From: an uncultured Bacteroidales bacterium
Lineage (GTDB): Bacteria > Bacteroidota > Bacteroidia > Bacteroidales > JAADJA01
Direction: 5' to 3'
NCBI GenBank assembly: GCA_963840975.1
Contig: CAWJBC010000002.1
Span: forward strand, 580,253-644,252
DNA length: 64,000 nt
The notes below the pieces were generated by a model. That model ran no database searches. It was not told the origin of the DNA and saw nothing but the letters and a program-made list of their open reading frames with translations. Position numbers and translations under genes: made by a program. This document shows positions 19,258 through 57,231 of the stretch, in pieces. The first letter of the stretch is position 1. The number at the start of each line of letters is the position of its first letter.

Positions 19258-19726
19258 ATGAAAAATAGGTTTATGAGTATTAGAAGTTTTAGGGATTTAA
19301 TTGTATATCAAAATACTTACAAAGCCATGCTGCTGGTAATGAAAGAACTTTTGCCATTTCTGCCGGAATTGGAAAAGTACGATTTAAAAAGTCAGTTTTC
19401 AAGATCTTCAAAAGCAATTCCACGATTGATCGCTGAAGGATATTCAAAAACGACATCAGTATGCTGGTTTTCAGAAATACATTGATGATGCTATGGGTGA
19501 GTGTAATGAAACAGTTGTTAGTCTGGAACAGGTAAAGGACATTTATGGATCCAATCCAGTCTTATGCGACGAATTAATTGAAATCTATGATATATCAGGT
19601 AGGCAATTGTACAAATTAGGCGAATCCTGGCAGCAGTTTAAGAATAAGGAAAAAGAAAACCGAACCCGACATGACCCTAACCCATACCGGCTTCCTAACC
19701 TTAACCCTATGACCTTTCAGCTATGA
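19258..19726 (+). pseudogene. Four-helix-bundle protein (23S rRNA intervening-sequence protein / Avd-like family), frame broken once
   Basis: ORFs 19258-19485 and 19493-19726 join into one family-typical protein, '...AEGYSK RHQYAGFQKYIDDAMGECNE...', if one A is removed from the A5 run at 19446-19450. Confidence 0.7.
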
Positions 19727-38307: not shown

Positions 38308-40794
<2,487 letters not shown>

Positions 40795-40928: not shown

Positions 40929-40962
40929 CCACTCATAAAAATTTGATAATTTCTTGATAAAA

Positions 40963-41574
40963 ATGATGAACAACAAGGTTGATGACAATTTTTCTGTGAT
41001 GAAACGGGAGGATAAAGAAAAGTTTTTAAATCAACGTTCAAAAGTTATTTGGATGACCGGACTCTCCGGTGCCGGAAAAACAACTATCGCCAGGCAACTT
41101 GAGAGGGAACTCTATCAGAGGGGTTACCTTGCCCAGATCCTTGATGGCGACCTCATCCGTTCAGGTATCAACAGCAATTTAACTTTTTCGGATGAGGATC
41201 GCTACGAAAACATTCGCAGGATTGCCGAGGTTTCAAAATTGCTTGTCAATTGCGGAATTATTTGCATCAATAGTTTTATAAGCCCAACTTCCGAAATTCG
41301 CAGCATGGCTCGAAAAATTATCGGCAATGAGAATTATATCGAAATCTTTGTGAATTCGCCACTGAGTGTCTGCGAGCAAAGGGATGTCAAAGGGTTATAT
41401 GCAAAAGCAAGAAAAGGACTGATCAAAGATTTCACCGGTATCGGCTCTCCTTTTGAGCATCCGGAAGAGCCGGACATTGAGGTTCACACGGATATGCAAA
41501 CAGTGGAACAATCGGTGGGTCAGATTCTTGAATATATTTTGCCATTGATTAAATTTATTGAAGACAAGAACTAA
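40963..41574 (+). CDS. cysC: Adenylyl-sulfate (APS) kinase
   Basis: 'VIWMTGLSGAGKTTIA' P-loop, 'LDGD..R' and 'FISP' motifs. I prefer the ATG at 40963 over the listed TTG at 40954. Confidence 0.9.
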   Translation: MMNNKVDDNFSVMKREDKEKFLNQRSKVIWMTGLSGAGKTTIARQLERELYQRGYLAQILDGDLIRSGINSNLTFSDEDRYENIRRIAEVSKLLVNCGIICINSFISPTSEIRSMARKIIGNENYIEIFVNSPLSVCEQRDVKGLYAKARKGLIKDFTGIGSPFEHPEEPDIEVHTDMQTVEQSVGQILEYILPLIKFIEDKN

Positions 41575-41588
41575 TTTCTCTAATTACT

Positions 41589-42494
41589 ATGCGGAAATAC
41601 AATCTCAATCATTTGAGGGAACTGGAATCGGAATCCATCTTTATCATGCGCGAAGTCGCTTCGCAATTTGAAAACCCCGCCTTGCTTTTTTCGGGTGGAA
41701 AAGATTCCATTGTTATGGTTCATTTGGCTAAAAAGGCATTTTATCCTGCGAAATTCCCCTTCCCGTTGTTTCATATTGATACGGGTCATAATTTTGAGGA
41801 AACTCTCACCTTTAGAGACGAACTGGTTAAAAAACTGGATGCAAGGCTGATCATAGGTTCGGTTCAGGAGGCGATTGATAGCGGCCGGGTAGTGGAAGAA
41901 AAAGGGTTCGAAGCAAGCCGGAATCTTTTGCAGACAGTTACCCTGCTCGATGCCATCGAAAAGCACAAGATTGATGCGGCATTGGGCGGAGGCAGACGGG
42001 ATGAGGAAAAGGCCCGCGCAAAAGAAAGGTTTTTTTCGCATCGTGATGAATTCGGACAATGGGATCCCAAAAACCAGCGCCCCGAACTCTGGAATATTTT
42101 CAACGGCAGGAAAAATATGGGCGAACATTTCAGGGTTTTCCCGCTGAGCAACTGGACCGAAATGGATATATGGCAATACATTTATCTCGATAATATTGAC
42201 ATTCCAAGTCTATACTTTACACACGAACGTGATGCTTTTGACCGTGATGGTGTTTGGCTGGCAGACGCTCCTTTTATGATGAAAAAGGAAAATGAAAAAG
42301 TGGTAAGAATAAAAGTCAGGTGCAGGACAATTGGTGATATTTCTTGTACCGGGCTCACCCTTTCGACCGCAGATAACCTTGAAGATATTATCCGGGAAAT
42401 CGCCGCCACAAGGGTAACCGAACGAGGCGGCCGGGCAGATGACAAACGGAGCGAATCGGCTATGGAAGACAGGAAGAAGGAAGGATATTTTTAA
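41589..42494 (+). CDS. cysD: Sulfate adenylyltransferase subunit 2
   Basis: 'LRELESESIFIMREV', 'FSGGKDS' PP-loop and 'RVFPLSNWTE.DIW.YI'. Confidence 0.92.
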   Translation: MRKYNLNHLRELESESIFIMREVASQFENPALLFSGGKDSIVMVHLAKKAFYPAKFPFPLFHIDTGHNFEETLTFRDELVKKLDARLIIGSVQEAIDSGRVVEEKGFEASRNLLQTVTLLDAIEKHKIDAALGGGRRDEEKARAKERFFSHRDEFGQWDPKNQRPELWNIFNGRKNMGEHFRVFPLSNWTEMDIWQYIYLDNIDIPSLYFTHERDAFDRDGVWLADAPFMMKKENEKVVRIKVRCRTIGDISCTGLTLSTADNLEDIIREIAATRVTERGGRADDKRSESAMEDRKKEGYF

Positions 42495-42525
42495 TGTTAG
42501 ATTTTTGATATACGATTTTTGATTT

Positions 42526-43821
42526 ATGATTGAAAAGATGGATGCAAATAAAGAATTCTCAAGCAAAGCATATTTGGATATGGAACTCCTGCGCTTTACC
42601 ACTGCTGGTAGTGTGGATGACGGTAAAAGTACGCTGATCGGAAGATTGTTGTACGACAGCAAGTCAATTTTTGAAGATCAGCTTGAAGCAGTAAAAAGAG
42701 CAAGTATCCGGAAAGGCAATGAACAGATTAACCTTGCATTGTTAACTGACGGGCTTCGCGCCGAAAGAGAGCAGGGCATCACCATTGATGTGGCTTATCG
42801 TTATTTTGCTACTCCCAAACGTAAGTTTATCATTGCCGATACTCCTGGCCATGTGCAATATACCCGTAATATGGTAACGGGTGCTTCCACTGCCAATGCA
42901 GCCATCATCCTGATTGATGCCCGCAATGGCGTCACTGAACAAACTTACAGGCATTCCTACATCTCTTCTCTGCTGCAGATACCACACCTGATTGTTTGTG
43001 TGAATAAAATGGACATCGTCAATTATGATGAAAAGGTTTACGAGGAGATCAAGGAAAATTTCAGTGCATTTGCTTCCAAACTTGAGGTTAACGATATCAG
43101 GTATGTTCCCATCAGTGCACTGAAAGGTGACAATGTGGTAGAATATTCCGAAAACATGCCCTGGTATGGAGGTGGTACCTTGCGGTACATTCTTGAGAAT
43201 ATCCATGTCGGTAGCGACTGGAACCATACCGATCCGCGGTTTCCGGTTCAATACGTTATCAGGCCTATTTCTGATAAATTCCATGATTACCGTGGCTATG
43301 CCGGACGTGTAGCCGGTGGTGTTTTCAGCAAAGGAGACAAAGTAATGGTTCTCCCTTCGGGCTTTGTCACTTCAATTGAGGCTATTGATTTTTATGATCA
43401 GCAACCCGAAGAAGCCTATGCGCCCATGTCGGTTACCATGCGGCTGACCGATGACCTGGATATCAGCCGGGGCGATATGATAGTTAAAGAGAACAATGTT
43501 CCTCAGATCAGTCAGGATATTGATGTGATGATGTGCTGGATGAACAACAAACCATTGATTCCCGGAACAAAATACCACTTAAAGCACACCACAGCCGATG
43601 TAAAATGTTTGGTCAAGGAAATAAAATACAAGGTGGATGTAAACACCCTCAACCAGGTGGATGATGGAAAAGAATTAACGATGAACGAAATCGCCAGGGT
43701 TTCGATCCGGACAACCAAGCCCTTGTTTTTTGATTCTTACCGGCAAAACCGTCAGACCGGAAGCATTATTTTGATTGATGAAGGAACAAACAACACTATG
43801 GGTGTTGGGATGATCATTTAA
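42526..43821 (+). CDS. cysN: Sulfate adenylyltransferase subunit 1 (GTPase)
   Basis: GTPase motifs 'GSVDDGKST', 'DTPGH' and 'NKMD'. The beta-barrel domains are EF-Tu-like. Confidence 0.9.
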
Positions 43822-44899: not shown

Positions 44900-45430
44900 A
44901 TGAATCTGATCGAAGAGAATACCTGGTATGCGGTTTATACCAGGCCGAGAAATGAAAAAAAGGTTTATGCCGCTTTGGATGCCGAAGGAATCCAGGTCTT
45001 TCTTCCTTTAATAAAAAACCTGAAACAATGGAGCGACCGAAAAAAATGGGTGGAGGAACCCTTGTTCCGTTCTTATCTTTTTGTTCATATTCCTCCAAAT
45101 CAATATTATAAAGTTTTGAATGTATTTGGCGTTGTGCGCTACATTACCTTCGAAGGAAAAGCTGTTGCGGTGCCACCCCAGCAAATTCTGGCAATAAAAC
45201 AATACATCAACGACGGAGAGATATTGCAGGAAGGTGAAAAGAATTTCGCAGCCGGAGATAAAGTCGAAATCTTCCGTGGCGCTTTAAAAGGTTTGACCGG
45301 AAATTTGATAAAGATTCAGGGAAAACAAAAGGTGAAAATCGAAATTGAATCCATCGGACACAGTATCACCATTACCATTCCTCCATCTTATCTCAGGACA
45401 ATACAAAAACCGGTAAGGAAAAATAATTGA
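44900..45430 (+). CDS. UpxY-family (NusG/RfaH-like) transcription antiterminator
   Basis: 'WYAVYTRPRNEKKV' NGN domain and a C-terminal KOW 'GDKVEIFRGALKGLTGNLIKI'. Confidence 0.8.
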   Translation: MNLIEENTWYAVYTRPRNEKKVYAALDAEGIQVFLPLIKNLKQWSDRKKWVEEPLFRSYLFVHIPPNQYYKVLNVFGVVRYITFEGKAVAVPPQQILAIKQYINDGEILQEGEKNFAAGDKVEIFRGALKGLTGNLIKIQGKQKVKIEIESIGHSITITIPPSYLRTIQKPVRKNN

Positions 45431-45449: not shown

Positions 45450-45478
45450 TTGACTTTTTAAAATATTGAGTAACTTTG
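45450..45478 (+). promoter_or_regulatory. Candidate promoter (-33 TTGA, 18-nt spacer, -7 TAACTTTG)
   Basis: TTG at 45450-52 and TAnnTTTG at 45471-78. A leader of about 150 nt follows, containing the palindrome gaaccggttc. Confidence 0.4.
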
Positions 45479-45625
45479 TTACTCGTTTTTGTGTAAAAAA
45501 TTATTTCTTTTAACATTTTAAACAAAGAGATAAGCATAAATTAAACAGTCATTTTGTGACTGACCGGGCGAAGCTGTATCAGTGAGATAAGATGAACCGG
45601 TTCATTCAAATTGGGATTTTCCCTC

Positions 45626-46165
45626 ATGCTCGACACACTTATTACTTCCAAAACACGCATCAAATTGTTGTTAAAATTTTTCCTGAACAGCAATTCGAGG
45701 TCTTATTTGCGCAACCTTGAGACGGAGTTTGGCGAATCCACCAATTCCATCAGGCTCGAACTGAACAAGTTTGAGCAGTCGGGCTTGCTGAAATCGGAGA
45801 TAGATGGAAACAGGAAGTATTTCATGGCCAATACCGAGCATCCGCTTTTCAAAGATATACACAGCATTTTGCTCAAGCAGATAGGGTTTGATAAGATCAT
45901 CGAAAGGGTCATCGAAAAGCTCGGCAACCTCGAAAAAGTTTTTGTGGCGGGTGATTTTGCCCATGGAATTGATAACCACATCATTGATCTTATCTTCATC
46001 GGCGACAACATCAACAAAGAATACCTGGTAAAGCTGGTCGAAAAGACCGAAAGCTTTATCAACCGTAAGATCAGGTACCTGGTTTATGGAAAAGAAGAGG
46101 CATTGTCGTTTCTGAAAACCCAGAACGATGAAGATTTGCTGATCCTCTGGAAAAACGAGAATTAA
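45626..46165 (+). CDS. Winged-helix (ArsR-like) DNA-binding protein with degenerate nucleotidyltransferase-like C-terminal half
   Basis: 'SKTRIKLLLKFFLN..SRSYLRNLE.EFGESTNSIRLELNKFEQSGLL' is wHTH-like. 'VFVAGDFAHG...IDLIFIGD' resembles a minimal NTase fold. Confidence 0.55.
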   Translation: MLDTLITSKTRIKLLLKFFLNSNSRSYLRNLETEFGESTNSIRLELNKFEQSGLLKSEIDGNRKYFMANTEHPLFKDIHSILLKQIGFDKIIERVIEKLGNLEKVFVAGDFAHGIDNHIIDLIFIGDNINKEYLVKLVEKTESFINRKIRYLVYGKEEALSFLKTQNDEDLLILWKNEN

Positions 46166-46202
46166 CTTACAATTATAGTATTGAAATGATTATCTTTGTG
46201 TT

Positions 46203-46622
46203 ATGCGAATTAATGATACACAAATACAACAATTAACCAGCGATTTAAAATCTAAATTTCCTGAAATATCATTTGCCTATCTTTTTGGTTCGGCCTCCGA
46301 TAAAGATATTGATCAACCATCCGACATTGATATGGCGGTTTATTTAAATTGGAAATCTCCTTCAACGAAATTAATTGCAGATATTATCGGCACCACCGAA
46401 CAAATATTTCCCGGCTTAAAATGCGATTTGACCATCCTGAATAATGCCGGATGTTTGATTGCCATGGAAGCGCTTAAAGGAAAAATATTATTTATCAGGG
46501 AAGAAGCAAGACCCATTCATGCAGATTTTTATTCATATACCTGCAGAACTTTTGAAGACGAAACAGCATGGATGAAAAAGCAGCTCCAATATCGCGGATA
46601 TGAAGTACAATGGAGTAATTGA
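46203..46622 (+). CDS. Minimal nucleotidyltransferase (MNT-type antitoxin-like)
   Basis: 'LFGSASDKDIDQPSDIDMAV' GS-x(n)-DxD Pol-beta NTase motif. About 140 aa. Confidence 0.7.
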   Translation: MRINDTQIQQLTSDLKSKFPEISFAYLFGSASDKDIDQPSDIDMAVYLNWKSPSTKLIADIIGTTEQIFPGLKCDLTILNNAGCLIAMEALKGKILFIREEARPIHADFYSYTCRTFEDETAWMKKQLQYRGYEVQWSN

Positions 46623-46668
46623 GAATAAACTCAGGGTTATTGAGCAAAAACTTGAAGAAATCCGATAA
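46600..46668 (+). pseudogene. Possible remnant (22 codons) of the partner HEPN/DUF86 gene
   Basis: The ORF 'MKYNGVIENKLRVIEQKLEEIR*' overlaps the MNT stop by 23 nt, in the usual MNT-HEPN arrangement, and resembles HepT N-termini. It is truncated by a stop. Confidence 0.3.
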
Positions 46669-46706
46669 TTGAAAAAACCGTCCCTTTTATTTCTTTTGAT
46701 TGCGTA

Positions 46707-47013
46707 ATGGAAAATAAAGCCAACAGCCCCGAAATCAAAGCATTCATCCGCCGCCACAGCTCTCTTTTTTGGTACACGCCCGGAAGACAAAAAGGAAGAT
46801 ATCAGCGAAGAATTTTTGGTGGAAACGATTTTGAATTATGGGGATTTAACATCCGTTAAAGAGTTGTTCTCATTGTTCGGAATGAAAAAGGTTGCTCGGA
46901 TATTTTATAAATCAATCCATCAAAGTAAGCGAAGAAAAGGTAATTACCACGAACTGACCCTGCATTTTTTCTCCTTACTTTTTAAATCCTATGCGATTAG
47001 AAATATTAAGTAA
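46707..47013 (+). pseudogene. Small antitoxin-like protein upstream of the AbiEii-like gene, frame broken once
   Basis: 'MENKANSPEIKAFIRRHSSLFWYTP' continues as 'EDKKEDISEEFLVETILNYGDLTSVKELF...' after a +1 shift near 46779-46783 (ccc/gg runs). It overlaps the next gene by 23 nt. Confidence 0.45.
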
Positions 47014-47605
47014 AACCCAGTCGGAAGTATTACCCTATCTGAAAACATTTAACCGTACTTTTTATTTGGTAGGGGGTACAGCAATTGCTTTTCACCTGGG
47101 ACACCGTCGTTCTATTGATTTTGATTTGTTTTGCCCTTCACCATTAAATAAACATCGGATAAAAAGTAAATTACTGACTATTCCGTTCAAACAAAATATG
47201 ATTTTTGAAGATTTTGACCAGATGCATTTAATGATCAATGAAGTCAAAACAACTTTTTTTAATTACCCTTATCCTGTTGAGCATCCCGTTAAAATCGAAA
47301 ATTATTTGACCATCCCTCAGCTTATTGATCTTGGTGCAATGAAAGCATTTGCCCTTGGGCGAAGAGCAAAATGGAAAGACTATGTGGATTTGTTTTTTAT
47401 TCTTAAAGATCATTCTACAATAGAAGAAATAAGTATTAAGGCCAAATCTATTTTTGGCTCCATTTATAATGAAAAGCTGTTTCGGGAGCAACTGGCTTTT
47501 CATAAAGACATTGACTTTTCTGAACCTGTTGAATTCATGGTTCCAGAGATTTCCGAAAAAGAAATCAAAGATTTTTTAACAGAAAAAGCGATTGATTTTT
47601 TATAG
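46991..47605 (+). CDS. AbiEii/AbiGii-like nucleotidyltransferase (toxin-like)
   Basis: N-terminal 'YLVGGTAIAFHLGHRRSIDFDLF' matches the family motif as I remember it. Family assignment is not verified. Confidence 0.55.
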   Translation: MRLEILSKTQSEVLPYLKTFNRTFYLVGGTAIAFHLGHRRSIDFDLFCPSPLNKHRIKSKLLTIPFKQNMIFEDFDQMHLMINEVKTTFFNYPYPVEHPVKIENYLTIPQLIDLGAMKAFALGRRAKWKDYVDLFFILKDHSTIEEISIKAKSIFGSIYNEKLFREQLAFHKDIDFSEPVEFMVPEISEKEIKDFLTEKAIDFL

Positions 47606-47650
47606 AATCTACCAAACAAGACTTGCAAGATTTTTTATTATTTTTGATCA

Positions 47651-47950
47651 ATGAGATTAACAGAAAAATATAAAACTGCCATTCAGAAATCTGCGGAATG
47701 TATATTTGGAATTGATGTACAGGTATTTCTGTTCGGTTCGCGGACCAATGACCAGTTAAAGGGTGGAGATATTGATCTGCTCATTAAAGCAGAAGGACGA
47801 AAGATGACAGCCCGGAACAAAGTCCTTTTTCTGGTAAATCTAAAAAAACAGTTGGGAGAGCAGAATATAGATGTCGTATATGAAAAGGTTTCTTATCGAA
47901 AGGATTTATTTTTTGAATCTATCCATAATCAGGCAATACGGTTATGCTAA
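47651..47950 (+). CDS. Minimal nucleotidyltransferase (MNT-type antitoxin-like)
   Basis: 'LFGSRTNDQLKGGDIDLLI' GS...DxD motif. 99 aa. It overlaps the next ORF by 7 nt. Confidence 0.7.
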   Translation: MRLTEKYKTAIQKSAECIFGIDVQVFLFGSRTNDQLKGGDIDLLIKAEGRKMTARNKVLFLVNLKKQLGEQNIDVVYEKVSYRKDLFFESIHNQAIRLC

Positions 47951-48423
47951 GTCAGCTATATATAGATAAGCTCAGGGAAACACTCGTAGCTGCACAGTTA
48001 CATCATCAGCGGATGATGTTTGCAGGGAACGAATTGTCACAATTCTTCCCTATGTCCATAGAGAAGTATGAAGAATTAACACCCGAACAAATCAGTTTTA
48101 CTGATCAGTTGATTTATCGTTTTTCAAAATTACAGGATTTGATGGGCCGGAAATTATTTGTGCTGATTATACAAGGATTAGGAGAAGATTCGGAGAGTAT
48201 GCCCTTTATAGATGTCCTTAACAGGCTTGAGAAGCTAAAAATATTAACAGATACTGATCAATGGCTTGAATTACGCGAAACCCGCAACCTTGTTACCCAT
48301 GAATATCCTTACCATCTGGATGAATTTGTTGACGGCCTTAATGCGTTGTACAACCAAAGCCTGAAGCTTTCTGAGATTTGGCTTGGCATTAAGACGTTTG
48401 TTGAAAAAAGGTTTGATCTTTAA
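47944..48423 (+). CDS. HEPN-domain protein (HepT-like toxin partner)
   Basis: Helical 159-aa protein with 'RETRNLVTHEY', an Rx4H HEPN motif near the C-terminal third. It is translationally coupled to the MNT gene. Confidence 0.6.
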   Translation: MLSQLYIDKLRETLVAAQLHHQRMMFAGNELSQFFPMSIEKYEELTPEQISFTDQLIYRFSKLQDLMGRKLFVLIIQGLGEDSESMPFIDVLNRLEKLKILTDTDQWLELRETRNLVTHEYPYHLDEFVDGLNALYNQSLKLSEIWLGIKTFVEKRFDL

Positions 48424-48439
48424 CAAATAAATTTGGTTA

Positions 48440-48503
48440 ACCCCAAAACATTAAACCCCAAACCTGAAACAGACATCGAACATCGAACCTCAAACTTCGA
48501 ACT
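48440..48503 (+). repeat. A/C-rich 'GAAC/AAAC'-periodic tract
   Basis: ccccaaaacattaaaccccaaacctgaaacagacatcgaacatcgaacctcaaacttcgaac, immediately upstream of wbpB. Confidence 0.5.
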
Positions 48504-48506
48504 AAA

Positions 48507-49457
48507 ATGAACAATAAGATTCTCAACTTCGGCCTCATAGGCGCTGCCGGCTACATTGCCCCGCGTCACATGAAAGCCATTAAAGATACAGGAAACAAGC
48601 TGGTTGCAGCCCTCGATCTTTACGACAGCATCGGCATCATTGATTCCTATTTCCCGGAAGCCGATTTTTTTACGGAGCCGGAACGTTTCGACCGTCATTT
48701 GGACAAACTCCGCCGAAGCGGAAAGGATAAAATAGATTACCTGAGCATCTGTTCTCCTAATTATCTGCATGATGCTCATATCCGGATGGCGCTGCGCAAT
48801 GATGCCCATGCCATCTGCGAAAAACCGCTTGTGCTCAATCCCTGGAATGTAGAGGCGCTTGGCGTGATAGAGCAGGAGACAGATAAAAAAATCTTTACCA
48901 TTTTACAGTTGCGTCACCATCCATCCATTATCGCACTGAAAGAAAAGATAAAAAACGGACCGGCAGATAAAACCTATGATGTTGACCTAACCTATATCAC
49001 TTCACGGGGCAACTGGTATTACCGTTCGTGGAAGGGGTATATGGAAAAGAGCGGTGGCATCGCCACTAACATCGGGGTTCACTTCTTTGATATGCTGAGC
49101 TGGATATTCGGCAAATGTTCCGAAAACATTGTGCATGTAGGTGAAAACGACAGGGCGGGAGGTTTTCTTCAGCTCGAAAAAGCGCGTGTCCGCTGGTTCC
49201 TTAGTATAAATTCCGACACCCTTCCCTCTCATGTAAAGGCAAAAGAACAAACCACTTACCGTTCTATTACGATTGACGGAGAAGAAATTGAATTCAGCGG
49301 TGGCTTTACCGATCTGCATACTGCAAGTTACGAGGGAATCATAAAAGGTCAGGGATATGGACTGGAAGAAGCCCGCAATGCTGTGGATATTGTGTTTACC
49401 ATCCGGAATCAAAAACCGGTGAAAGCGACGGGTGAAAAACATCCAATGGTGGAATAG
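48507..49457 (+). CDS. wbpB: Gfo/Idh/MocA oxidoreductase, WbpB-like (UDP-N-acetyl-2-amino-2-deoxy-glucuronate 3-dehydrogenase)
   Basis: 'GLIGAAGYIAPRHMKAIKDTGNKLVAALD..DSIGIIDSYFP...FFTE' and 'YLSICSPNYLH...ICEKPL' closely match the WbpB N-terminal region as I remember it. Confidence 0.8.
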   Translation: MNNKILNFGLIGAAGYIAPRHMKAIKDTGNKLVAALDLYDSIGIIDSYFPEADFFTEPERFDRHLDKLRRSGKDKIDYLSICSPNYLHDAHIRMALRNDAHAICEKPLVLNPWNVEALGVIEQETDKKIFTILQLRHHPSIIALKEKIKNGPADKTYDVDLTYITSRGNWYYRSWKGYMEKSGGIATNIGVHFFDMLSWIFGKCSENIVHVGENDRAGGFLQLEKARVRWFLSINSDTLPSHVKAKEQTTYRSITIDGEEIEFSGGFTDLHTASYEGIIKGQGYGLEEARNAVDIVFTIRNQKPVKATGEKHPMVE

Positions 49458-49558
49458 AGGAAATGACAATTATAGGTGAAACAATTCAGAACATCAAACA
49501 TAGAACTGCGTCTGGCGTTTATTGGCAAATACTGCTGGAGACGATGAGGTTTTGACAG

Positions 49559-50887
49559 ATGAAAGAAAGTCAGAGCATAGAATATAAAGAATCCTGGCGG
49601 GATGAAAACTTAAAGATTATTTGCGCTTTTGCAAATACCCATGGTGGCAGTCTTTTCATTGGTATAAGTGATGATGGTTCAGTTGTAGGAGTGAAAGATA
49701 CAAAAAAACTTTTAGAAGATATTCCAAATAAAGTGATTAATTATCTGGGAATAATTGTTGATGTTCAAACCCATAAAAAATCAGGATTGGAATATATCGA
49801 AGTGAATGTACCACAGAGTAGTGTTCCAATTGGTTATCGGGGAATATATTATGTGAAAAGCGGTAGCACAAAACAAGAATTGAAAGGAGCGGCCCTTCAG
49901 CAATTTATGTTACAAAAGATGGGAAAAACCTTTGACGAACTACCTGCCGATAGTGCTGATTTTAGCTACATTGACGAAAAAGTGGTTGAAAGGTTTTTGA
50001 AAAAAGCGTTGGCTGTTAATCGGATTTCTGCAGGCGCAGAATTTGATGATATTTCTTCCACCCTTTTAAATCTAAAACTGATTAACAAAAACAACAAGAT
50101 AATAAATGCTGCAATACTCCTGTTTGGTTATGATCCACTCAGGTTCTTTGTTACTGCTACCTTTAAGATTGGCCGTTTCGGCAATAGTGATCATGATTTG
50201 AGATTTCAGGATATTATTGAAGGAAATATTTTTGAGATGCCTGACAAAGTGATGGAAATGTTAAGGGCAAAATACTTGATTTCTCCTATTCGTTACGAGG
50301 GATTACAAAGGATTGAAGAGCTTGAATATCCTGAAGTGTCTCTAAGAGAGGCTATTTTAAATGCAATTGTTCATAAAGATTATACGGGTGCTCCTGTTCA
50401 ACTTAGTGTTTATGACGACAGGTTAATTCTTTGGAATGAAGGAAAGCTTCCTTCTGACCTGACAGTACAAATGCTAAAGGAAAAACACCCGTCAAGGCCA
50501 CACAATAAGTATATTGCGGATATATTTTTTAAAGCCGGATACATTGAAACATGGGGGCGGGGTATTGCAAAGATAATGGACGGTTGTAAAAAAGCAGGAC
50601 TGCCCGAACCAACAATTGAAGAAGTGGCTGGAGGAGTTCAAATAACCTTTTTTAAATCCAACGAATTAGATACGGGAAAAAGTAAGGAGAAAAGTAAGGA
50701 GAAAAGTAAGGAGAAAATTATAAAAGCAATCTCTGAAAATCCATATATTTCGATTCTTGAACTGTCAGCAATTACAGGATTGAGCATTAGCGGAGTAGAA
50801 AAAAACATTCGGATTTTAAAAAAACATGGAACTTTATCTCGAATAGGCCCCGCCAAAGGCGGTCACTGGCAAATCATTGAAAAATAA
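49559..50887 (+). CDS. AlbA_2 (Schlafen-like) + HATPase_c_4 + C-terminal wHTH protein, paralogue A1
   Basis: 'ESQSIEYKESW...ICAFANTHGGSLFIGISDDG' (AlbA_2). 'REAILNAIVHKDY...' with '...IETWGRGIAKI' (RecG-C-like HATPase_c_4). wHTH tail '...RIGPAKGGHWQIIEK'. Confidence 0.8.
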   Translation: MKESQSIEYKESWRDENLKIICAFANTHGGSLFIGISDDGSVVGVKDTKKLLEDIPNKVINYLGIIVDVQTHKKSGLEYIEVNVPQSSVPIGYRGIYYVKSGSTKQELKGAALQQFMLQKMGKTFDELPADSADFSYIDEKVVERFLKKALAVNRISAGAEFDDISSTLLNLKLINKNNKIINAAILLFGYDPLRFFVTATFKIGRFGNSDHDLRFQDIIEGNIFEMPDKVMEMLRAKYLISPIRYEGLQRIEELEYPEVSLREAILNAIVHKDYTGAPVQLSVYDDRLILWNEGKLPSDLTVQMLKEKHPSRPHNKYIADIFFKAGYIETWGRGIAKIMDGCKKAGLPEPTIEEVAGGVQITFFKSNELDTGKSKEKSKEKSKEKIIKAISENPYISILELSAITGLSISGVEKNIRILKKHGTLSRIGPAKGGHWQIIEK

Positions 50888-50923
50888 TTGAGCACGGAAC
50901 GAATGATCCCTGAACTGTCAGCC

Positions 50924-51195
50924 GAATTAAGACTGCCTTGCCACAGGCATCCCTTTGGGAAAATTGACTAAAGTTTTGATTGACTAAATTGAAAAAGCCA
51001 GCAGCCAACAGCCAATTGCTAAAAGCTTTTTCAACAGTCAACCCTCAACGGAGAACTGAATTAAGAATGCCTTGCCACAGGCATCCCTTTGGGAAAATTG
51101 ACTAAAGTTTTGATTGACTAAATTGAAATTGCCAACAGCTAACAGCCAATTGCTAAAAGCCTTTCCAACTGTCATCCGTGAACTGAGAACCGGGA
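50924..51195 (+). repeat. 134-bp intergenic repeat, tandem dimer 1 (unit starts 50924 and 51058)
   Basis: Unit: gaattaaga(n)tgccttgccacaggcatccctttgggaaaattgactaaagttttgattgactaaattgaaa..gccaacagc.aacagccaattgctaaaagc... Aligned by eye with the four other copies. Confidence 0.9.
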
Positions 51196-51242
51196 ACAGA
51201 ATTGAATAGTGCCTAAAATTAGTGAAGCATTACTGAACTCAA

Positions 51243-52617
51243 ATGACTGACCAGGAATTATATAACTTAATACAACAAGGTGAAGGTGAAAACCTTGAAT
51301 TTAAAAGCAATTTCAATAGTGAGCTTATTGAGACTTTAGTTGCTTTTGCAAACACAAGAGGAGGAAAGGTTGTTCTGGGTATTAATGATAAGAACAAATT
51401 TACAGGAATTAAGATCAGCTCGGAATCAGTACAAAACTGGATCAATGAAATCAAAAATAAAACATCACCCGCATTGATGCCTGATGTAACAATCATTGAG
51501 TCAGGAGTACAAATAAGTGTTGTCTTTTCCATTCAGGAATATCCGGTTAAGCCTGTTTCAACCCGTGGTAAGTATTATAAACGTATTGCCAATTCAAATC
51601 ATCTGATGAGCCTTGATGAAATTTCAAATGAGCACCTGAGAACAATTAACAGTAGCTGGGATTTTTATCCCGACCCTAATCACGGCATTGAGGCGATATC
51701 CATAAGTAAAGTTAAAAATTTCATCTGGAAGATTGAGCAGCAAACGCAAGCCAAAGTTGAACTTGAACCAATGGCCTTTCTGTCGAAATTCGAAATTATT
51801 CGCGATAAGCAACTAACATTTGGTGGATTTTTACTTTTTGTCAAAGAGTATTGCCTGAACAGCGATATTCAGGTGGGGCGCTTTAAAAGTGAAACCATGA
51901 TCATTGACAGTATTTCATTAAATACCGACTTATTTACCGAAGTGGATGAAATACTTGCTTTTATAAAAAAGCACCTCATGGTTGAGTACATCATCACCAG
52001 CGAACCCCAGCGGACTGAGCGCTTTGATTATCCAATGGATGCCATCCGTGAAATTGTTATCAATATGATCGTGCATAGGGATTATCGCGACAGCAGTCAC
52101 AGCATAATCAAAATATTTGACGAAAGAATCGAATTTTTTAATCCGGGTAAACTTTATGGAAATCTTACTATCGCAGATTTACTTAGTGATAACTATACTT
52201 CCCAAACACGAAATAAACTTGTAGCAAAAGCTTTTAAAGAAACAGGACTAATTGAACGATACGGTTCCGGCATCAGGCGTATAATCAATATCTGTAAAGA
52301 ATATGGGGTCAAACAACCCCTGTTTGAAGAAGTATTTCATGGATTCAAAGTTACTTTATTCAAAAAGAAGATCATGGTCGGAGAAAAGGTCGGAGAAAAG
52401 GTCGGAGAAAAGGTCGGAGAAATTCTTAGTGAAAACCAAAAAATGATTATTAAATTGATTAAGTTAAATAATCATATTTCTGCCCGTGAACTTTCAGATG
52501 GAACTTAATATATCTCAGCGAAAAATTGAAGAAAACATCAGTAAACTAAAGAAAAAAAAAATACTCAAACGGATTGGACCCCCCAAAGGCGGCTTTTGGG
52601 AGATCATCGTCAATTAA
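51243..52617 (+). pseudogene. AlbA_2 + HATPase_c_4 + wHTH protein, paralogue A2, frame broken once near the 3' end
   Basis: 'NLEFKSNF...LVAFANTRGGKVVLGINDKN' and 'REIVINMIVHRDY...IERYGSGIRRI'. The wHTH tail 'ELNISQRKIEENISKLKKKKILKRIGPPKGGFWEIIVN*' is read after a +1 shift at about 52500 (gg). Confidence 0.75.
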
Positions 52618-52668
52618 GCAACCCGAAACCCAGAACACTGAACCCGGAACCGTGAACCCTGAACGAAT
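52618..52668 (+). repeat. A/C-rich 'GAAC'-periodic tract
   Basis: gcaacccgaaacccagaacactgaacccggaaccgtgaaccctgaacgaatg. Confidence 0.5.
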
Positions 52669-52670
52669 GA

Positions 52671-52768
52671 TTTAACCGCGAAAAACCGCAAATTAACCGC
52701 GAATTTTACGAATTACACGCCGATTGGCGCTAATTGGCGATAGATCTGCGCAATCAGCGGTGAAAAAA
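52671..52768 (+). repeat. About 95-nt intergenic repeat, family 2, copy a
   Basis: tttaaccgcgaaaaaccgcaaattaaccgcgaattttacgaattacacgc... aligns with 54630-54725 with scattered mismatches. Confidence 0.7.
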
Positions 52769-52958
52769 CCTTTAAAATCATACAAAAGATTCTATGTAGA
52801 ACCTCAAACCCCGAACTTCAAACTTCAATCTTACCACGAATACCCAATGTTCTGATTGACTTAGTTGAAATCAAACCCGAAACGCTAAACAAAATATTAA
52901 TAACCTTTGACATCTGATGCATTCCTATTGAGAATTTCCGGATTCCCGGTATTAACAA

Positions 52959-54314
52959 ATGTCTGAAAATCAAAACATAGAGTTTAAGCAAACCTGGCGT
53001 GATGAATATCTGAAATGGATATGTGGTTTTGCCAATGCTTACGGAGGAAAAGTTTTTATCGGTCTGGATGACAATGGTAACGCTTTAGGCCTCTCGAATA
53101 CTCAAAAGCTGATGGAAGACATTCCGAATAAAATAGTTAATTATTTAGGAGTGTTAGCAGATGTGAATTTGTTGGAGAACAGGGGTGAGCAATACATTGA
53201 GATTATTGTTACCCCTTCAAGTGTGCCTATTTCTTTCAAAGGGATCTATTATTACCGTTCTGGCAGTACCAAGCAGGAACTTAAAGGAACAGCATTGCAT
53301 CAGTTTCTTTTAAAACGTACCGGACATACATGGGATGACCTGCCTTGTGAAAGTGCTACTTTGCAGGATATTGATACGGATGTTGTAAAATACTTCTTCA
53401 AAAAAGTTGCTGTAAGCAAACGTATCGCCGATAATGCAGGTGATGATGATTTGAAAACAACGCTTGAAAATCTGGATCTTCTATCAAACATTGGTCACCT
53501 GAAAAATGCAGCTTTGTTGCTGTTCGGTAAAAAGCCATCACGGTTTTTTCCATCAGTATCTTTCAAAATAGGCAGGTTTATTGATGGTGATGATGATTTA
53601 CGTTTTCAGGATGTGGTTGAAGGAAATATTCTTCAAATGGCGGACAAAGTACTGGATATCCTGAAATCAAAATACCTGATTTCACCCATCCATTATGAAG
53701 GTCTGCAGCGGATAGAAAGGCTCGAGGTTCCGGAAGATTCGCTCAGGGAAGCTATTTTTAATTCAATAATACATAAGGATTATACCGGAGCTCCGATCCA
53801 GTTGAGCGTTTACAATGATAAAATTATTCTTTGGAATGAAGGCCGGTTACCTGAAGGATTTACCATTGAAACCTTGCTTGAAAAGCATCCCTCAAGACCC
53901 AGCAATAAAAACATTGCAGATATTTTCTTCAAAGCAGGCTTTATTGAGGCCTGGGGCCGGGGTATTGCAAAAATTGTCAATGGTTTTGTTCATTCAGGAT
54001 TACCTGCTCCGGTTTTTACGTTGGCTATGGGTGGTATAATGGTCACCATCAAAAGAGAAATATCAGATCAAGGTGACTCAATTGATCATAAAAATGTTAC
54101 AGAAAACGTTACAGTAAATGTTACAGAAAACAGAAAGGCTATCATACTTGAGATAATTAGAAAAAATAATAGAATTACAACTCAGGAAATGGCTCAAATA
54201 CTCGGAGTAACGCGAATGACAATAGCAAGAGACATTGAATTTTTTAAGCAAAAAGGCATGCTTCATCGCATTGGACCTGCCAAAGGCGGTCACTGGCAAA
54301 TCATTGAAAAATAA
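52959..54314 (+). CDS. AlbA_2 + HATPase_c_4 + wHTH protein, paralogue A3
   Basis: Collinear with A1 over the full length. 'NQNIEFKQTW...ICGFANAYGGKVFIGLDDNG', 'REAIFNSIIHKDY...IEAWGRGIAKI' and an identical tail 'RIGPAKGGHWQIIEK'. Confidence 0.8.
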   Translation: MSENQNIEFKQTWRDEYLKWICGFANAYGGKVFIGLDDNGNALGLSNTQKLMEDIPNKIVNYLGVLADVNLLENRGEQYIEIIVTPSSVPISFKGIYYYRSGSTKQELKGTALHQFLLKRTGHTWDDLPCESATLQDIDTDVVKYFFKKVAVSKRIADNAGDDDLKTTLENLDLLSNIGHLKNAALLLFGKKPSRFFPSVSFKIGRFIDGDDDLRFQDVVEGNILQMADKVLDILKSKYLISPIHYEGLQRIERLEVPEDSLREAIFNSIIHKDYTGAPIQLSVYNDKIILWNEGRLPEGFTIETLLEKHPSRPSNKNIADIFFKAGFIEAWGRGIAKIVNGFVHSGLPAPVFTLAMGGIMVTIKREISDQGDSIDHKNVTENVTVNVTENRKAIILEIIRKNNRITTQEMAQILGVTRMTIARDIEFFKQKGMLHRIGPAKGGHWQIIEK

Positions 54315-54350
54315 TTGAGCACGGAACGAATGATCCCTGAACTGTCAGCC

Positions 54351-54622
54351 GAATTAAGATTGCCTTGCCACAGGCATCCCATTGGGAAAATTGACTAAAG
54401 TTTTGATTGACTAAATTGAAATTGCCAACAGCTAACAGCCAATTGCTAAAAGCTTTTTCAACAGTCAACCCTCAACGGAGAACTGAATTAAGATTGCCTT
54501 GCCACAGGCATCCCTTTGGGAAAATTGACTAAAGTTTTGATTGACTAAATTGAAAAAGCCAACAGCTAACAGCCAATTGCTAACAGCCTTTTCAACTGCC
54601 ATCCGTGAATTGAGAACCAACA
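54351..54622 (+). repeat. 134-bp intergenic repeat, tandem dimer 2 (unit starts 54351 and 54485)
   Basis: Same unit as 50924-51195, with the same 134-nt spacing. Confidence 0.9.
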
Positions 54623-54629
54623 ACAAAAG

Positions 54630-54725
54630 TTTAACCGAGAAAAACCGCAAATTAACCGCGAATTTTACGAATTACACGCTGATTAGCGCAAATAAGCGAT
54701 TAATCTGCGCAATTAGAGGTAAAGA
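54630..54725 (+). repeat. About 95-nt intergenic repeat, family 2, copy b
   Basis: tttaaccgagaaaaaccgcaaattaaccgcgaattttacgaattacacgc..., matching 52671-52768. Confidence 0.7.
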
Positions 54726-54883
54726 CAAACCCGGAACCGAAAGCGCAGCACCGAAAATGGATCAATTAATTTCATGTAATTTGATTACAAACACAGGAAA
54801 AATAATTACGAAAAGCATGCAGGTTGCCGTAAATCTTCAAATAATCAACAATACTGACCGATAATAAAACAGGAAATAATAAA

Positions 54884-55141
54884 ATGAATTTTCAATTTTC
54901 CAAACACTCAATTGAACAGATAAAAATACGCGGCCTTAGCATTGATATTATTTCCGAATTAATTGAGAATCCGGACAAGACCATAACCCATATTTCCGGT
55001 ACCATCATTTATCAAAAGCTTGTCAATGAAGACAATAAATACTATATTTACAGGGTTTTTATAAATAAAGAAAAGAAACCACCACTGGTGATTACAGCAT
55101 ATAAAACATCAAAAATTGAAAAATATGAAGATCAGGTATGA
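54884..55141 (+). CDS. DUF4258-family protein (toxin-like)
   Basis: 'FSKHSIEQIKIRGLSIDIISELIENPD' resembles the DUF4258 N-terminus. 85 aa. It overlaps the next ORF by 26 nt. Confidence 0.6.
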   Translation: MNFQFSKHSIEQIKIRGLSIDIISELIENPDKTITHISGTIIYQKLVNEDNKYYIYRVFINKEKKPPLVITAYKTSKIEKYEDQV

Positions 55142-55319
55142 TAAAGAAACCGACATTGTTTACATCCGTTTTTCGGATTTAGCAATAGCTGAAAGCGATC
55201 AGGAAAAGCCAGGTATTATCCTTGATTATACAAAGAATGGTCAAATTGTCGGCATAGAAATTCTTAATGCCTCTGCCAATATTGAACAGGTTAATGGTAT
55301 TCTTTATGAAGTAGCCTGA
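55116..55319 (+). CDS. DUF2283-family protein (antitoxin-like)
   Basis: 'MKIRYDKETDIVYIRFSD...GIEILNAS' is the classic DUF2283 pattern. 67 aa. Confidence 0.7.
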   Translation: MKNMKIRYDKETDIVYIRFSDLAIAESDQEKPGIILDYTKNGQIVGIEILNASANIEQVNGILYEVA

Positions 55320-55341
55320 ACAAAAGCGAGAACCCTGAACG

Positions 55342-55600
55342 GAATTAAGATTGCCTTGCCACAGGCATCCCTTTGGGAAAATTGACTAAAGTTTTGATTG
55401 ACTAAAATGAAATTGCCAACAGCCAACAGCCAATTGCTAAAAGCCTTTTCAACAGTCAACCCTCAAGGGAGAACTGAATTAAGATTGCCTTGCCACAGGC
55501 ATCCCTTTGGGAAAATTGACTAAAGTTTTGATTGACTAAATTGAAAAAGCCAACAGCCAACAGCCAATTGCTAAAAGCCTTTTTCAACAGTCAAACTCAG
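55342..55600 (+). repeat. 134-bp intergenic repeat, tandem dimer 3 (unit starts 55342 and 55476)
   Basis: Same unit and spacing as the other dimers. The last copy diverges after about nt 120 into a GAAC-rich tract. Confidence 0.9.
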
Positions 55601-55668
55601 AACCCAGAACCCAGAACCCGGAACACAGAACTCAAAACCCGGAACTCAAAACCTTGAACTGAGAACAC
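55594..55668 (+). repeat. A/C-rich 'GAACCC(A/G)'-periodic tract
   Basis: aactcagaacccagaacccagaacccggaacacagaactcaaaacccggaactcaaaaccttgaactgagaac. Confidence 0.6.
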
Positions 55669-55721
55669 AAAAAATGCTCTTTAACTCCATCCATTTCGTA
55701 CTCTAAAAATCTTTAAAAGAA

Positions 55722-57231
55722 ATGATTAACAAAATTATAGAATCAATTAATAATTTTCCTGAACGCAACGCATTCTTTATCAAGGATAAATTCTATACTT
55801 ATGCTCCAGCTTGGGACAGGAGATTTCAAATATAAAAAATGTTTTATTGCCCCATTTACCAAAAGTTTCTCCAAAATATATTGGGGTAATGATGTATGAG
55901 GATTTCGAATCCTATGCATCTTGTATAACTGTTTTACTTTCTGGTTGCGGGTATGTCCCTTTAAACCCATTGAATCCGATAGAGCGTAACCTTGAAGTCA
56001 TTCATCAGGCAGGAGTAAAAATAATTTTATCCAGCAACACAACATCTGAATTAGCATACAATAGGAATAAGAATCTGACATTTATTGATACCGGCAAATT
56101 ACCAGATGGAACCATTGATCTTGAGTTTCCCCCAACAAAAGATGATGATCCGGCTTATGTAATTTTTACTTCCGGCAGTACAGGCAAACCAAAAGGAGCA
56201 CCCATAAGCAGAGGAAATCTAAATGCATTTCTTGATTCTGTCTGGGATATTGGCTGGGATATTAACGAAGAAGACAGGTTTCTTCAAATGTCAAGTATGA
56301 CTTTCGATATGTCCATTCTTACTTTCATTATTCCTCTGTGTGTCGGAGCCTGTATTTATACTGTACCGGAAGATGAGATCAAATACCTTTTTGGATTTAA
56401 GCTTATGGTCGAACAGGGTATCACATTCATTGCCGTTGTTCCTTCTACGCTTATCTTACCTTAAACCATATTTCAGCTCAATCAATCTTACATCAATTCG
56501 ATATTCTCTGGTTTGTGGTGAATCGTTTCCGATAGAATTGGCTAACCTTTGGCAGCAATGTGTTCCTAACGGAAAAATCGTAAATATTTATGGGCCCACG
56601 GAAGCAACGGTATTCACACATTCATACCATTACAGCAAAGGAAACCATGACAAATCTTACAACAACATCATGGCGCTTGGCGACCTGGTGAAGAATATGG
56701 AAACATTGATCCTTGATGAAACTGAAAATGAAGTTGAACAAGGACAAAAAGGAGAATTGTGTATTTCCGGAAAACAACTGACAAGCGGCTACCTTAATAA
56801 TCCTGAAAAAAACCTGGAAAGTTTTTTCATAAAAAAATCCGGTAGTGTTGAAAAAAGATTTTACCGCACAGGTGATATTGTTTTTGTGGATAATGAAAAT
56901 TGTTATTTTTATGTTGGAAGGAAAGATCATCAGGTTAAAATACAAGGGCACCGGGTTGAATTGGGCGATATTGAAAAACACGCCAGAGACATAACGCTTA
57001 CAGAAAATACAATCGCTCTTGCTCAGTTAAACGAATTCGGAAATTATCATATCCATCTTTTTACCGATCAAACTGATTTCAATCGTGAGGATATACTTAA
57101 ATATCTGAAATCCAAATTGCCTTATTATATGATTCCTTCCAATGTGACCAAAAGTGGAAAAAATGCCGATGAATGTTAATGGTAAAATTGACCGGCTTGC
57201 ATTGTTGAAAATGATTAAAAACCGTAAGTAA
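55722..57231 (+). pseudogene. DltA-like adenylation enzyme (AMP-dependent synthetase/ligase, carrier-protein ligase), at least 3-4 frame breaks
   Basis: 'YVIFTSGSTGKPKGA' (A3 core), 'YGPTEATV' (A5), 'YRTGD' (A7), 'GRKDHQVKIQGHRVELGDIE' (A8) and 'NVNGKIDR' (A10, read after a shift at about 57150). Fragments lie in frames 0, 2, 0, 1. Confidence 0.8.

Follow-up and report, generated by a model that had tools for sequence, protein, structure and literature searches.

Variable accessory-gene slots within a polysaccharide operon that is probably antiterminated by UpxY in an uncultured Bacteroidales bacterium

In Proteobacteria, long operons for surface polysaccharides have a 12-nt element in their leader, and polarity is suppressed by a specialised NusG paralogue (the RfaH/ops or JUMPstart system). 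Defence and accessory hot spots between core genes are known as well, as are chromosomal integrons with cassette arrays rich in toxin-antitoxin (TA) genes. UpxY control has, to our knowledge, been elucidated solely for the capsule operons of gut Bacteroides. In Bacteroides fragilis, UpxY loads on RNA polymerase paused at opsX sites of ~40 bp in the leaders of capsule operons, each site pairing a pause hairpin with a non-template hairpin of the form 5'-YGCGNAGCR (PMC11685472). For Bacteroidetes, a phylum without Shine-Dalgarno sequences, the sigma-A consensus comprises TTTG at -33 and TAnnTTTG at -7 (PMC7366714). Heptanucleotide tandem repeats, which comprise the cyanobacterial STRR, the long simple sequence repeats (LSSR) and the TAACTGA repeats found in Cyanobacteria, Beggiatoaceae and a few Bacteroidetes, often lie before start codons, with slippage proposed as their origin (PMC4679880). 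UpxY/ops control, TA- and defence-rich hot spots and heptamer repeats are known separately. Here we analysed a stretch of 64 kb (the window) from an uncultured Bacteroidales bacterium and examined its interval 45.45–55.7 kb, where TA and ATPase genes interrupt a polysaccharide locus downstream of a upxY gene. Judging from its sequence, the interval is probably the promoter-proximal third of a one-strand exopolysaccharide/capsule operon, estimated at 18 kb at least and subject to UpxY-type antitermination, and its accessory genes occupy two separate variable slots between core genes, not one island.

Open reading frames (ORFs) were called with a simple longest-ORF rule, and 60 ORFs of the window were scanned for protein families using Pfam, NCBIfam and PADLOC profiles, complemented by a PDB match. 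The locus was compared with five relatives at ~76–78% nucleotide identity, among which L001/L011, L012 and L013 are Danish soil/sediment-type metagenome-assembled genomes (MAGs) and L007 is a JGI metagenome contig; L008 is related as well, at a greater distance. The order common to the relatives is Wza, Wzc, CysC, CysD, CysN, (epimerase), UpxY, promoter/leader, a winged helix-turn-helix (wHTH) nucleotidyltransferase (NTase), variable content, and wbpB, the latter being 75–82% conserved in L001, L007, L012, L013, and L014. L013 is collinear with the window over 35.6–46.16 kb, passes from the wHTH-NTase stop codon to wbpB in ~100 nt with zero TA pairs, carries 4.7 kb of IS3-RhuM-IS3 after wbpB, and rejoins the window at 55.64–59.6 kb (84–86% identity) with the acyl-AMP ligase, thioesterase, and MBOAT genes. 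Slot V1 (46.17–48.44 kb, ahead of wbpB) is thus empty in L013; it holds a DUF6922/AbiEii pair in L012, an MNT gene with an intact HepT plus an AbiE pair in L007, an AbiE pair, 23S_rRNA_IVP, an epimerase, and MNT/HEPN in L001, and three TA pairs, one of them decayed, in the window. Slot V2 (49.46–55.71 kb, behind wbpB) contains three AlbA_2 genes and a DUF4258/DUF2283 pair in the window, four AlbA_2 genes or fragments (one cut by IS3) and ORF6N in L012, IS3-RhuM-IS3 in L013, RhuM in L007, and AbiEi/AbiEii with HU-HIG in L001. At the cysD/cysN junction there is a third small slot, occupied by a 31-nt heptamer spacer in the window, PDDEXK_3 in L001, and 23S_rRNA_IVP in L008. The accessory/defence hot spot within a polysaccharide locus that a first-pass annotation of the sequence had proposed is thereby borne out: gene content varies by presence or absence at the same position among L013, L007, L012, and L001, and the flanks are kept. 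In other MAGs, loci with AlbA_2 homologues hold co-oriented genes for AlbA_2, AAA_14/DUF4143, MNT/HepT, HicA, HigB, PIN, 23S_rRNA_IVP, and RhuM, in arrays that also include sugar genes and heptamer-rich spacers.

The protein encoded by the upxY gene scores 159.3 bits against the NF033644 cutoff of 100, and its ORF stops 20 nt ahead of the interval start. The promoter that follows has the layout TTG-N18-TAACTTTG, fits the Bacteroidetes consensus, and is the sole intergenic TAnnTTTG with a -33 TTG in 44–60.5 kb; its CTTGAC-N-TAACTTTG context is kept in every relative. The palindrome GAGTAACTTTGTTACTC at 45468–45484 covers the -7 box and is, together with the promoter, common to the window, L001, L007, L008, L012, and L013. 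In a survey of ~80 related loci it sits 5' of the wHTH-NTase gene in nearly all of them, and it is a candidate operator for the wHTH protein. An opsX-like leader element lies ~70 nt past the promoter; 43 instances from the related loci yield the consensus TGKGACTGAnnnGGCGRAGCTGTG, preceded by hairpins that vary in sequence (mean z -1.49), and the core GCGNAGC is identical to that of B. fragilis opsX. Rfam gave no match for the leader or the spacers at either gathering or permissive thresholds. No invertible promoter was seen, as no inverted repeat pair brackets 45.45 kb and the nearest pair (45487–45512 / 47421–47446, 73% complementary) looks like chance. A sigma-70 promoter scan (60 found vs. 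55 expected) was uninformative for this phylum. All genes between 37.5 and 63.7 kb are on the + strand, with a single exception, and only one terminator-like hairpin, the promoter palindrome itself, was detected on the intergenic + strand of 45.4–56 kb. The interval of the first-pass annotation begins at 45450, where an apparently UpxY-dependent transcription unit begins as well; the annotation had overlooked the UpxY gene and the promoter and leader (45450–45579). Its view of a sugar pathway split across the interval also holds, with WbpD/E/A-like genes at 31.0–34.2 kb, wbpB in between, and polysaccharide genes that restart at 55.71 kb on the same + strand and continue to at least 63.7 kb.

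The first gene behind the leader had been counted as a regulator belonging to the island, and this assignment has to be given up. We found 7932 homologues of the wHTH-NTase (the best 120 listed are 69–92% identical), and its C-terminal half matches PDB 2rff, a 'putative nucleotidyltransferase'. Of 76 loci from GTDB species representatives, 35 with full flanks, 50 (28 of these 35) have a UpxY gene on the strand of the wHTH-NTase gene at a distance of up to 5 kb, and all 35 loci with full flanks have a polysaccharide-gene context. The order is wHTH-NTase followed by UpxY in Saprospiraceae, and UpxY followed by wHTH-NTase in the Bacteroidales clade considered here. Because the UpxY linkage, the polysaccharide context, and the palindrome recur across loci, the wHTH-NTase is a core regulatory partner of UpxY across Bacteroidota and not an accessory or island gene. 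Accessory-labelled ORFs of the same 76 loci reach 0.166/kb downstream of it vs. 0.037/kb upstream (4.4×), the labels being given by similarity to a seed set, which distant accessory families escape. UpxZ, considered as an identity for the gene after upxY, was ruled out by the wHTH and NTase matches and by the lack of a UpxZ Pfam match. The family is without the usual GS..DxD motif and has the conserved core G-D-F-A-x-G-x-D-N-x-x-I-D-L, and its nucleotidyltransferase activity may be altered or lost. Depending on the lineage (L009/L014-L018/L021-L024, others), the ops-like motif is found 5' of the gene or 60–100 nt past its stop codon, and the gene appears to be placed on either side of this motif within the leader.

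Taken as a package, we consider it fairly probable that the two slots are insertion-tolerant hot spots inside an operon antiterminated by UpxY. Transcription would start near 45,485, just after the upxY gene, and UpxY would load onto RNA polymerase at the hairpin and GCGAAGC of the leader and make it termination-resistant, with the wHTH-NTase probably binding the palindrome over the -7 box. V1 would then have gathered type VII (MNT/HEPN) and type IV (AbiE-like) TA pairs, and V2 the AlbA_2-ATPase-wHTH genes and the DUF4258/DUF2283 pair, all co-oriented and presumably transcribed as part of the operon. Since polar signals have no effect on an antiterminated polymerase, such insertions would not silence the downstream sugar genes, so that the slots would tolerate gain, loss, decay, and insertion sequence (IS) elements, and IS elements, ATPase-wHTH genes, and TA modules, the last being resistant to loss, could build up there. 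Turnover could proceed by ordinary illegitimate and homologous recombination involving 134-bp dimers, shared spacer modules, and IS3, with no need for a dedicated site-specific system. The heptamer tracts would be slippage-generated leader or spacer sequence tied to the downstream gene, and as leaders they may give unstructured, A-rich translation starts independent of Shine-Dalgarno sequences. For the cell, the TA and AlbA_2 genes might serve addiction and/or abortive infection.

Several points weigh against this reading. Co-transcription and the action of UpxY are inferred from sequence, and insertion tolerance by way of antitermination is an argument, not a measurement. The bases flanking the GCGNAGC core are G...T here and Y...R in the published site, the upxY gene ends at 45430, 5' of the promoter, whereas in Bacteroides it comes first behind the leader, and no UpxZ is present, the protein at 45611–46165 having no Pfam family at E ≤ 0.01, UpxZ included. 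Some of the inserts may be transcribed separately: MNT1 and MNT2 have TAnnTTTG boxes (TATCTTTG at 46191–46198 and TATTTTTG at 47639–47646) 12 nt before their ATG, and the MNT/HEPN modules may thus carry a promoter of their own, followed by a very short leader. Selfish genes sit in housekeeping operons of the window too (IVP at 19258, YhcG at 20322). The comparisons join MAGs and metagenome contigs of different species and are therefore species-level, not strain-level, and the frameshifts may be sequencing errors or real decay, several of them being possible errors.

Table 1 Features of the window discussed in the text (positions in nucleotides unless given in kb)
Feature	Position	Strand	Evidence or remark
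WbpD/E/A-like genes	31.0-34.2 kb		
UpxY-family NusG paralogue (specialised antiterminator)	44900-45430	+	NCBIfam NF033644 antiterm_UpxY; Pfam NusG and KOW
Bacteroidetes-type promoter	45450-45484	+	-33 TTG 45450-45452; -7 TAACTTTG 45471-45478
opsX-like leader element	45546-45579	+	CAGTCA-TTTTG-TGACTG hairpin 45546-45562; ACCGG; GCGAAGC 45568-45574; TGTAT
wHTH + MNT-type nucleotidyltransferase, 179 aa	45626-46165	+	PADLOC PDC-M05A 1e-24; no Pfam match
MNT (MntA-like) antitoxin-type NTase, V1 module 1	46203-46622	+	Pfam Polbeta 2e-14; NCBIfam MntA 5e-14; GS..DxD
HepT (HEPN) toxin stub, 22 codons	46600-46665	+	tblastn 91% identity to first 22 aa of L007 HepT
DUF6922-like small partner gene	46707-47013	+	two tblastn pieces in different frames
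AbiEii-like nucleotidyltransferase, V1 module 2	46991-47605	+	Pfam AbiEii 5e-10; PADLOC AbiEii
MNT, V1 module 3	47651-47950	+	Pfam and NCBIfam matches
HEPN, V1 module 3	47944-48423	+	RNLVTH (RX4H) motif intact
Heptamer (xxGAACx) leader of wbpB	48439-48506	+	kept with wbpB in five relatives
WbpB-like GFO/IDH/MocA oxidoreductase, core	48507-49457	+	Pfam; divides V1 from V2
AlbA_2-HATPase_c_4-wHTH #1	49559-50887	+	Pfam
134-bp tandem dimer A	50908-51190	+	after AlbA_2 #1
AlbA_2-HATPase_c_4 #2	51243-52617	+	Pfam; wHTH split off by frameshift near 52500
Spacer	52620-52837	+	heptamer tract 52620-52664, 94-nt copy 1, heptamer tract 52787-52837
94-nt unit, copy 1	52671-52764	+	88% identical to copy 2
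AlbA_2-HATPase_c_4-wHTH #3	52959-54314	+	Pfam
134-bp tandem dimer B	54335-54617	+	after AlbA_2 #3
94-nt unit, copy 2	54630-54723	+	88% identical to copy 1
DUF4258	54884-55141	+	Pfam 1.2e-4, below cutoff
DUF2283	55116-55319	+	Pfam 4.9e-21; overlaps DUF4258, TA-like pair
134-bp tandem dimer C	55326-55608	+	after DUF2283
GAAC heptamer tract leading to acyl-AMP ligase	55594-55673	+	tract and gene conserved in L013
AMP-binding (DltA-like) ligase, right conserved flank	55714-57179	+	Pfam AMP-binding on two ORFs

All ten genes listed for the interval in the first-pass annotation were confirmed at their coordinates on the + strand (Table 1). In V1, the HepT gene, intact in L007 (134 aa), has lost ~380 nt by deletion in the window, where the alignment ends at 46665, and the DUF6922-like gene, compared with the 101-aa L007 and 105-aa L001 proteins, is split by a +1 frameshift near 46780 (an extra C in a CCC run). 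The MNT and HEPN genes of module 3, a module that is not in L007, L012, or L013, overlap by 7 nt and present the motifs GSRTNDQLKGGDID (GS..DxD) and RNLVTH, with scores that fall under the NCBIfam equivalog cutoffs. In V2, the three AlbA_2 paralogues previously described as a tandem series are present and turned out to be unequal: #1 and #3 share 54% amino acid identity, #2 shares 26% with either and is frameshifted. Homologues of #1 number >4000 and are mostly from Bacteroidota; the orthologue of #2 in L012 (86% nucleotide identity) is interrupted by IS3. Each AlbA_2 gene has its own in-frame 12-nt tandem repeat (AAAAGTAAGGAG at 50678–50717, GGTCGGAGAAAA at 52376–52422, and AAAACGTTACAG at 54091–54131; 3.3–3.9 copies), which encodes tetrapeptide repeats in the linker between HATPase_c_4 and wHTH. 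Signs of decay thus comprise the HepT stub and the frameshifts in the DUF6922-like gene and AlbA_2 #2. On the right flank, the acyl-AMP ligase gene occupies three reading frames and is 84% identical at the nucleotide level to that of L013, where it is frameshifted at other positions. Altogether, five frameshifts were observed within ~25 kb (34.4, 46.78, 52.5, 55.83, and 56.4 kb), in an epimerase (34245–35272), the DUF6922-like gene (46780), AlbA_2 #2 (52500), and twice in the acyl-AMP ligase (55830 and 56340–56464). In L013, the V2 slot (12031–16268 of that locus) has the look of a composite transposon, with the RhuM gene between two IS3 copies (HTH_Tnp_1 + rve ORFs of identical length).

Among the neighbouring genes, cysC, cysD, and cysN (40954–43821) form part of the polysaccharide locus in the window, as they do in most related loci, and these sulfate-activation genes suggest a sulfated polysaccharide; CysN is the 431-aa ORF at 42526–43821, recognized via its GTP_EFTU-annotated L007 orthologue. 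A (CTACGG)n hexamer of ~13.5 copies (40644–40730) encodes the tyrosine-rich C-terminal tail of a Wzc-like tyrosine kinase and is found in L001 as well. Further upstream, a 23S_rRNA_IVP fragment (19258–19726) lies co-oriented between mlaE/ABC-transporter genes and cvpA, and a YhcG/DUF1016 PD-(D/E)XK nuclease gene (20322–21398) adjoins it in this housekeeping gene string, both without heptamer tracts.

The same anatomy is compatible with a capsule-coupled defence island, in which selection keeps TA/Abi and AlbA_2 genes that are co-expressed with a phage-receptor polysaccharide and provide cover by abortive infection. The modules do belong to families with a defence record or candidate status (AbiE, MNT/HEPN, PADLOC PDC-M05A and PDC-S09), the Schlafen-like AlbA_2 proteins match pAgo-associated models, the second HEPN retains RX4H, all modules are co-oriented downstream of the operon promoter, and the association recurs in many Bacteroidales loci. 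However, a deletion has removed one HepT toxin and two genes carry frameshifts, L013 is without any V1 module, and the slots also house IS elements and genes unrelated to defence (HU-HIG, 23S_rRNA_IVP, PDDEXK_3), which fits permissive accumulation; in addition, none of these exact genes has a known anti-phage phenotype, and our literature search on TA/defence genes inside Bacteroidales polysaccharide loci found nothing relevant. As the main driver, selected defence coupled to the capsule therefore seems to us possible, though rather unlikely.

Three families of intergenic repeats (134-bp dimers, a 94-nt unit, and period-7 tracts) had been noted and were confirmed at their coordinates, and their part in separating gene units stands only for the 134-bp dimers, which alone delimit modules, and this in V2; the V1 pairs have 0–45-nt, repeat-free spacers, and the heptamer tracts are leaders. 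The window holds six 134-bp units, all in 50.9–55.6 kb, with 94% mean column identity (zero chance matches expected), modest folding (z -2.6), and no terminal inverted repeats seen. An exact search with the core gave no match in 185,579 species genomes or JGI metagenomes; by blastn, a 42–52-nt core is 94–100% identical in the V2 spacer of L007, vs. a background of 76%. These observations bear on a REP/BIME- or MITE-type dispersed repeat, for which many copies across the genome and terminal inverted repeats or target duplications would be expected. Between the AlbA_2 #1 and #3 regions, identity rises from ~55–65% in the genes to 92–100% across the dimer and the final ~50 nt of the ORF before it (~50840–51170), a jump that shows recent copying or gene conversion of the dimer module. 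The spacer module GGCAGTCGGCAAGAACCAAAAACTTTA... is common to L007, L012, and L013, and spacer modules are common to the window and these three relatives despite different genes; no dispersed 134-bp or spacer repeats were found outside this small lineage. Dispersed direct repeats of this kind are plausible substrates for RecA-type gain and loss. A spacer resembling the 94-nt unit of the window (CGCGAATT / TAGCG repeats) was seen in the MAG HKST-UBA07 (L002, 1477–1590), where ~110 nt separate an epimerase gene from wbpB and the wHTH-NTase gene is on another contig (L018).

The 12 period-7 tracts of the window are all located at 42.49–55.65 kb. In related loci totalling 1.1 Mb, tracts of lag 7 amount to 15.7 kb (lag 6, 3.6 kb; lag 8, 6.5 kb), 77% of the tract bases are intergenic while 83% of the DNA is in ORFs, and the density is 0.59/kb inside the labelled polysaccharide block vs. 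0.24/kb outside; Bacteroidales loci commonly have such tracts, Saprospiraceae loci hardly any. A GAAC tract precedes the wbpB start codon in the window, L007, L012, L013, and L001 whatever lies upstream, the empty site of L013 included, which makes it part of the leader of the gene that follows. In a census of 32 tract-bearing loci, with 150 tract-flanked and 150 unflanked ORFs sampled, CysD (15 flanked vs. <4 unflanked), 23S_rRNA_IVP (15 vs. <4), CysN (11 vs. <4), Epimerase (13 vs. 6), NusG (9 vs. 4), and AbiEii (5 vs. 5) were counted. Hence, the tracts are not specific to accessory genes, with the exception of IVP, yet they are not generic background. Their role as cassette borders or insertion scars was ruled out by the wbpB tract in the empty site and by core genes being flanked equally often. 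We also considered C-rich, G-poor Rho-loading sites overridden by UpxY, an idea that is unsupported in general, as across loci the sense strand of the tracts is rich in A and has about as much C as G, although those of the window are A/C-rich. In L008 (5263–5863), a 23S_rRNA_IVP gene between cysD and cysN is bordered by inverted heptamer arrays (AGAGCAT 5', ATGCTCT 3'), an arrangement that recalls the stems around 23S rRNA intervening sequences; in L003 and L006, too, inverted heptamer arrays stand back to back and would fold into long hairpins.

These data bear directly on the cassette array built by an unknown recombination mechanism that had been suggested at first, i.e., an integron-like or site-specific array of mobile units bounded by repeat sites, with the recombinase encoded elsewhere. 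It would explain why co-oriented genes, mostly without their own promoter, follow one promoter, why three 134-bp dimers follow three gene units, and why the units differ between relatives. Yet repeats stand after only 3 of ~10 units, the V1 spacers are repeat-free, one heptamer tract stays with wbpB in an empty site and the tracts flank core as often as accessory genes, and the 134-bp units, as nearly identical, modestly folding tandem dimers, are unlike attC, of which no likeness was found among the window repeats, judged by position and folding. As had been noted before, the window contains no integrase or transposase families (60 ORFs scanned) and no tRNA, and the repeat core was absent from the genomes and metagenomes searched exactly. 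We thus regard this explanation as very unlikely. Similarly improbable is a single horizontally acquired island that arrived in one insertion event: ten non-sugar genes and a slightly lower G+C content at 46–48 kb (0.34–0.37) than in the flanks speak for it, but core wbpB and the wHTH-NTase gene lie inside, the modules vary one by one among relatives, those that are shared have diverged as much as or more than the flanks (AbiEii 52% and MNT 65% identical vs. 82–89% for flank proteins), and neither tRNA, integrase, nor direct-repeat border was found in the window. Least probable of all is an assembly artefact, in which repeats made the assembler join unrelated pieces, for although assembly is made difficult by three dispersed, near-identical repeats of 270 nt and by many low-complexity tracts, several frameshifts occur, and L002 ends in a heptamer tract, the window is part of a 669-kb contig and one order, from UpxY and wHTH-NTase through the TA pairs and wbpB to the accessory genes and the acyl-AMP ligase, is found again in the independent assemblies L001, L007, L012, and L013.

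Returning to slots presumably made permissive by UpxY, this locus and ~80 related ones suggest that an ops-type leader is widespread in uncultured environmental Bacteroidales, that UpxY is paired there with a conserved wHTH-nucleotidyltransferase replacing UpxZ, and that the antiterminated, promoter-proximal part of the operon gathers TA, Schlafen-like ATPase, and other selfish or defence-type genes. In the literature we found no description of an ops-type leader with a palindromic promoter conserved across environmental Bacteroidales, of UpxY paired with a wHTH-NTase instead of UpxZ, or of accessory modules concentrated leader-proximally in such operons. If true, this would provide a simple rule for the placement of accessory genes in essential-looking operons and would connect capsule expression to phage defence in a testable way, and it offers a concrete setting for the function of heptanucleotide tandem repeats, a question dating from their description in cyanobacteria. 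A bolder version, which we hold to be doubtful, sees promoter, ops-like leader, UpxY, and wHTH-NTase as a phylum-wide expression platform, integron-like without an integrase, where co-oriented arrivals in leader-proximal slots would be transcribed without polarity and translated from A-rich heptamer leaders, and changing abortive-infection genes would be coupled to capsule expression in environmental Bacteroidales.

With regard to known systems, the modules themselves resemble HepT/MntA (type VII) in having adjacent, overlapping MNT and HEPN genes with GS..DxD and RX4H, one HepT being deleted here, and AbiE (type IV) in having an AbiEii-like NTase after a small partner, which here is a DUF6922-like protein of 101 aa and not a canonical AbiEi; for both systems the scores are below the NCBIfam equivalog cutoffs. 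With RfaH/ops the locus shares a GGCG...AGC...TG leader element and a specialised NusG paralogue, but the loop is one base shorter (GCGAAGC vs. GCGGTAGC), phylum and paralogue family differ, and Rfam, JUMPstart included, gave no match. The capsule operons of B. fragilis and B. thetaiotaomicron under UpxY-UpxZ/opsX (PMC11685472; PMC7593976) are alike in their locus-linked UpxY-family NusG paralogue, in a leader hairpin followed by GCGNAGC in a G...TG pause-type context, and in the long one-strand polysaccharide operon downstream. Unlike here, upxY comes first after the leader in those operons and not before the promoter, they have UpxZ where the first gene of our locus is a wHTH-nucleotidyltransferase, and interruption by TA and ATPase genes has not been described for them; an invertible promoter was not seen in our locus. 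The heptamer tracts agree with the described heptanucleotide repeats (PMC4679880) in period 7, in intergenic position, often upstream of start codons in forward orientation, and in lineage-specific units; they differ in the units (xxGAACx, AGCCAAC, and others, not TAACTGA), in their concentration in polysaccharide operons and, in some relatives, in forming inverted arrays around inserted genes. Finally, the slots have in common with accessory hot spots and chromosomal integrons a variable TA/Abi content between conserved flanks, co-oriented genes served by a promoter ahead of them, toxin genes in decay, and inserted IS elements; they differ in that neither integrase nor attC was found and in their location, which is within a biosynthetic operon rather than on a mobile element or flanked by housekeeping genes, and the permissive factor that we propose here is antitermination.

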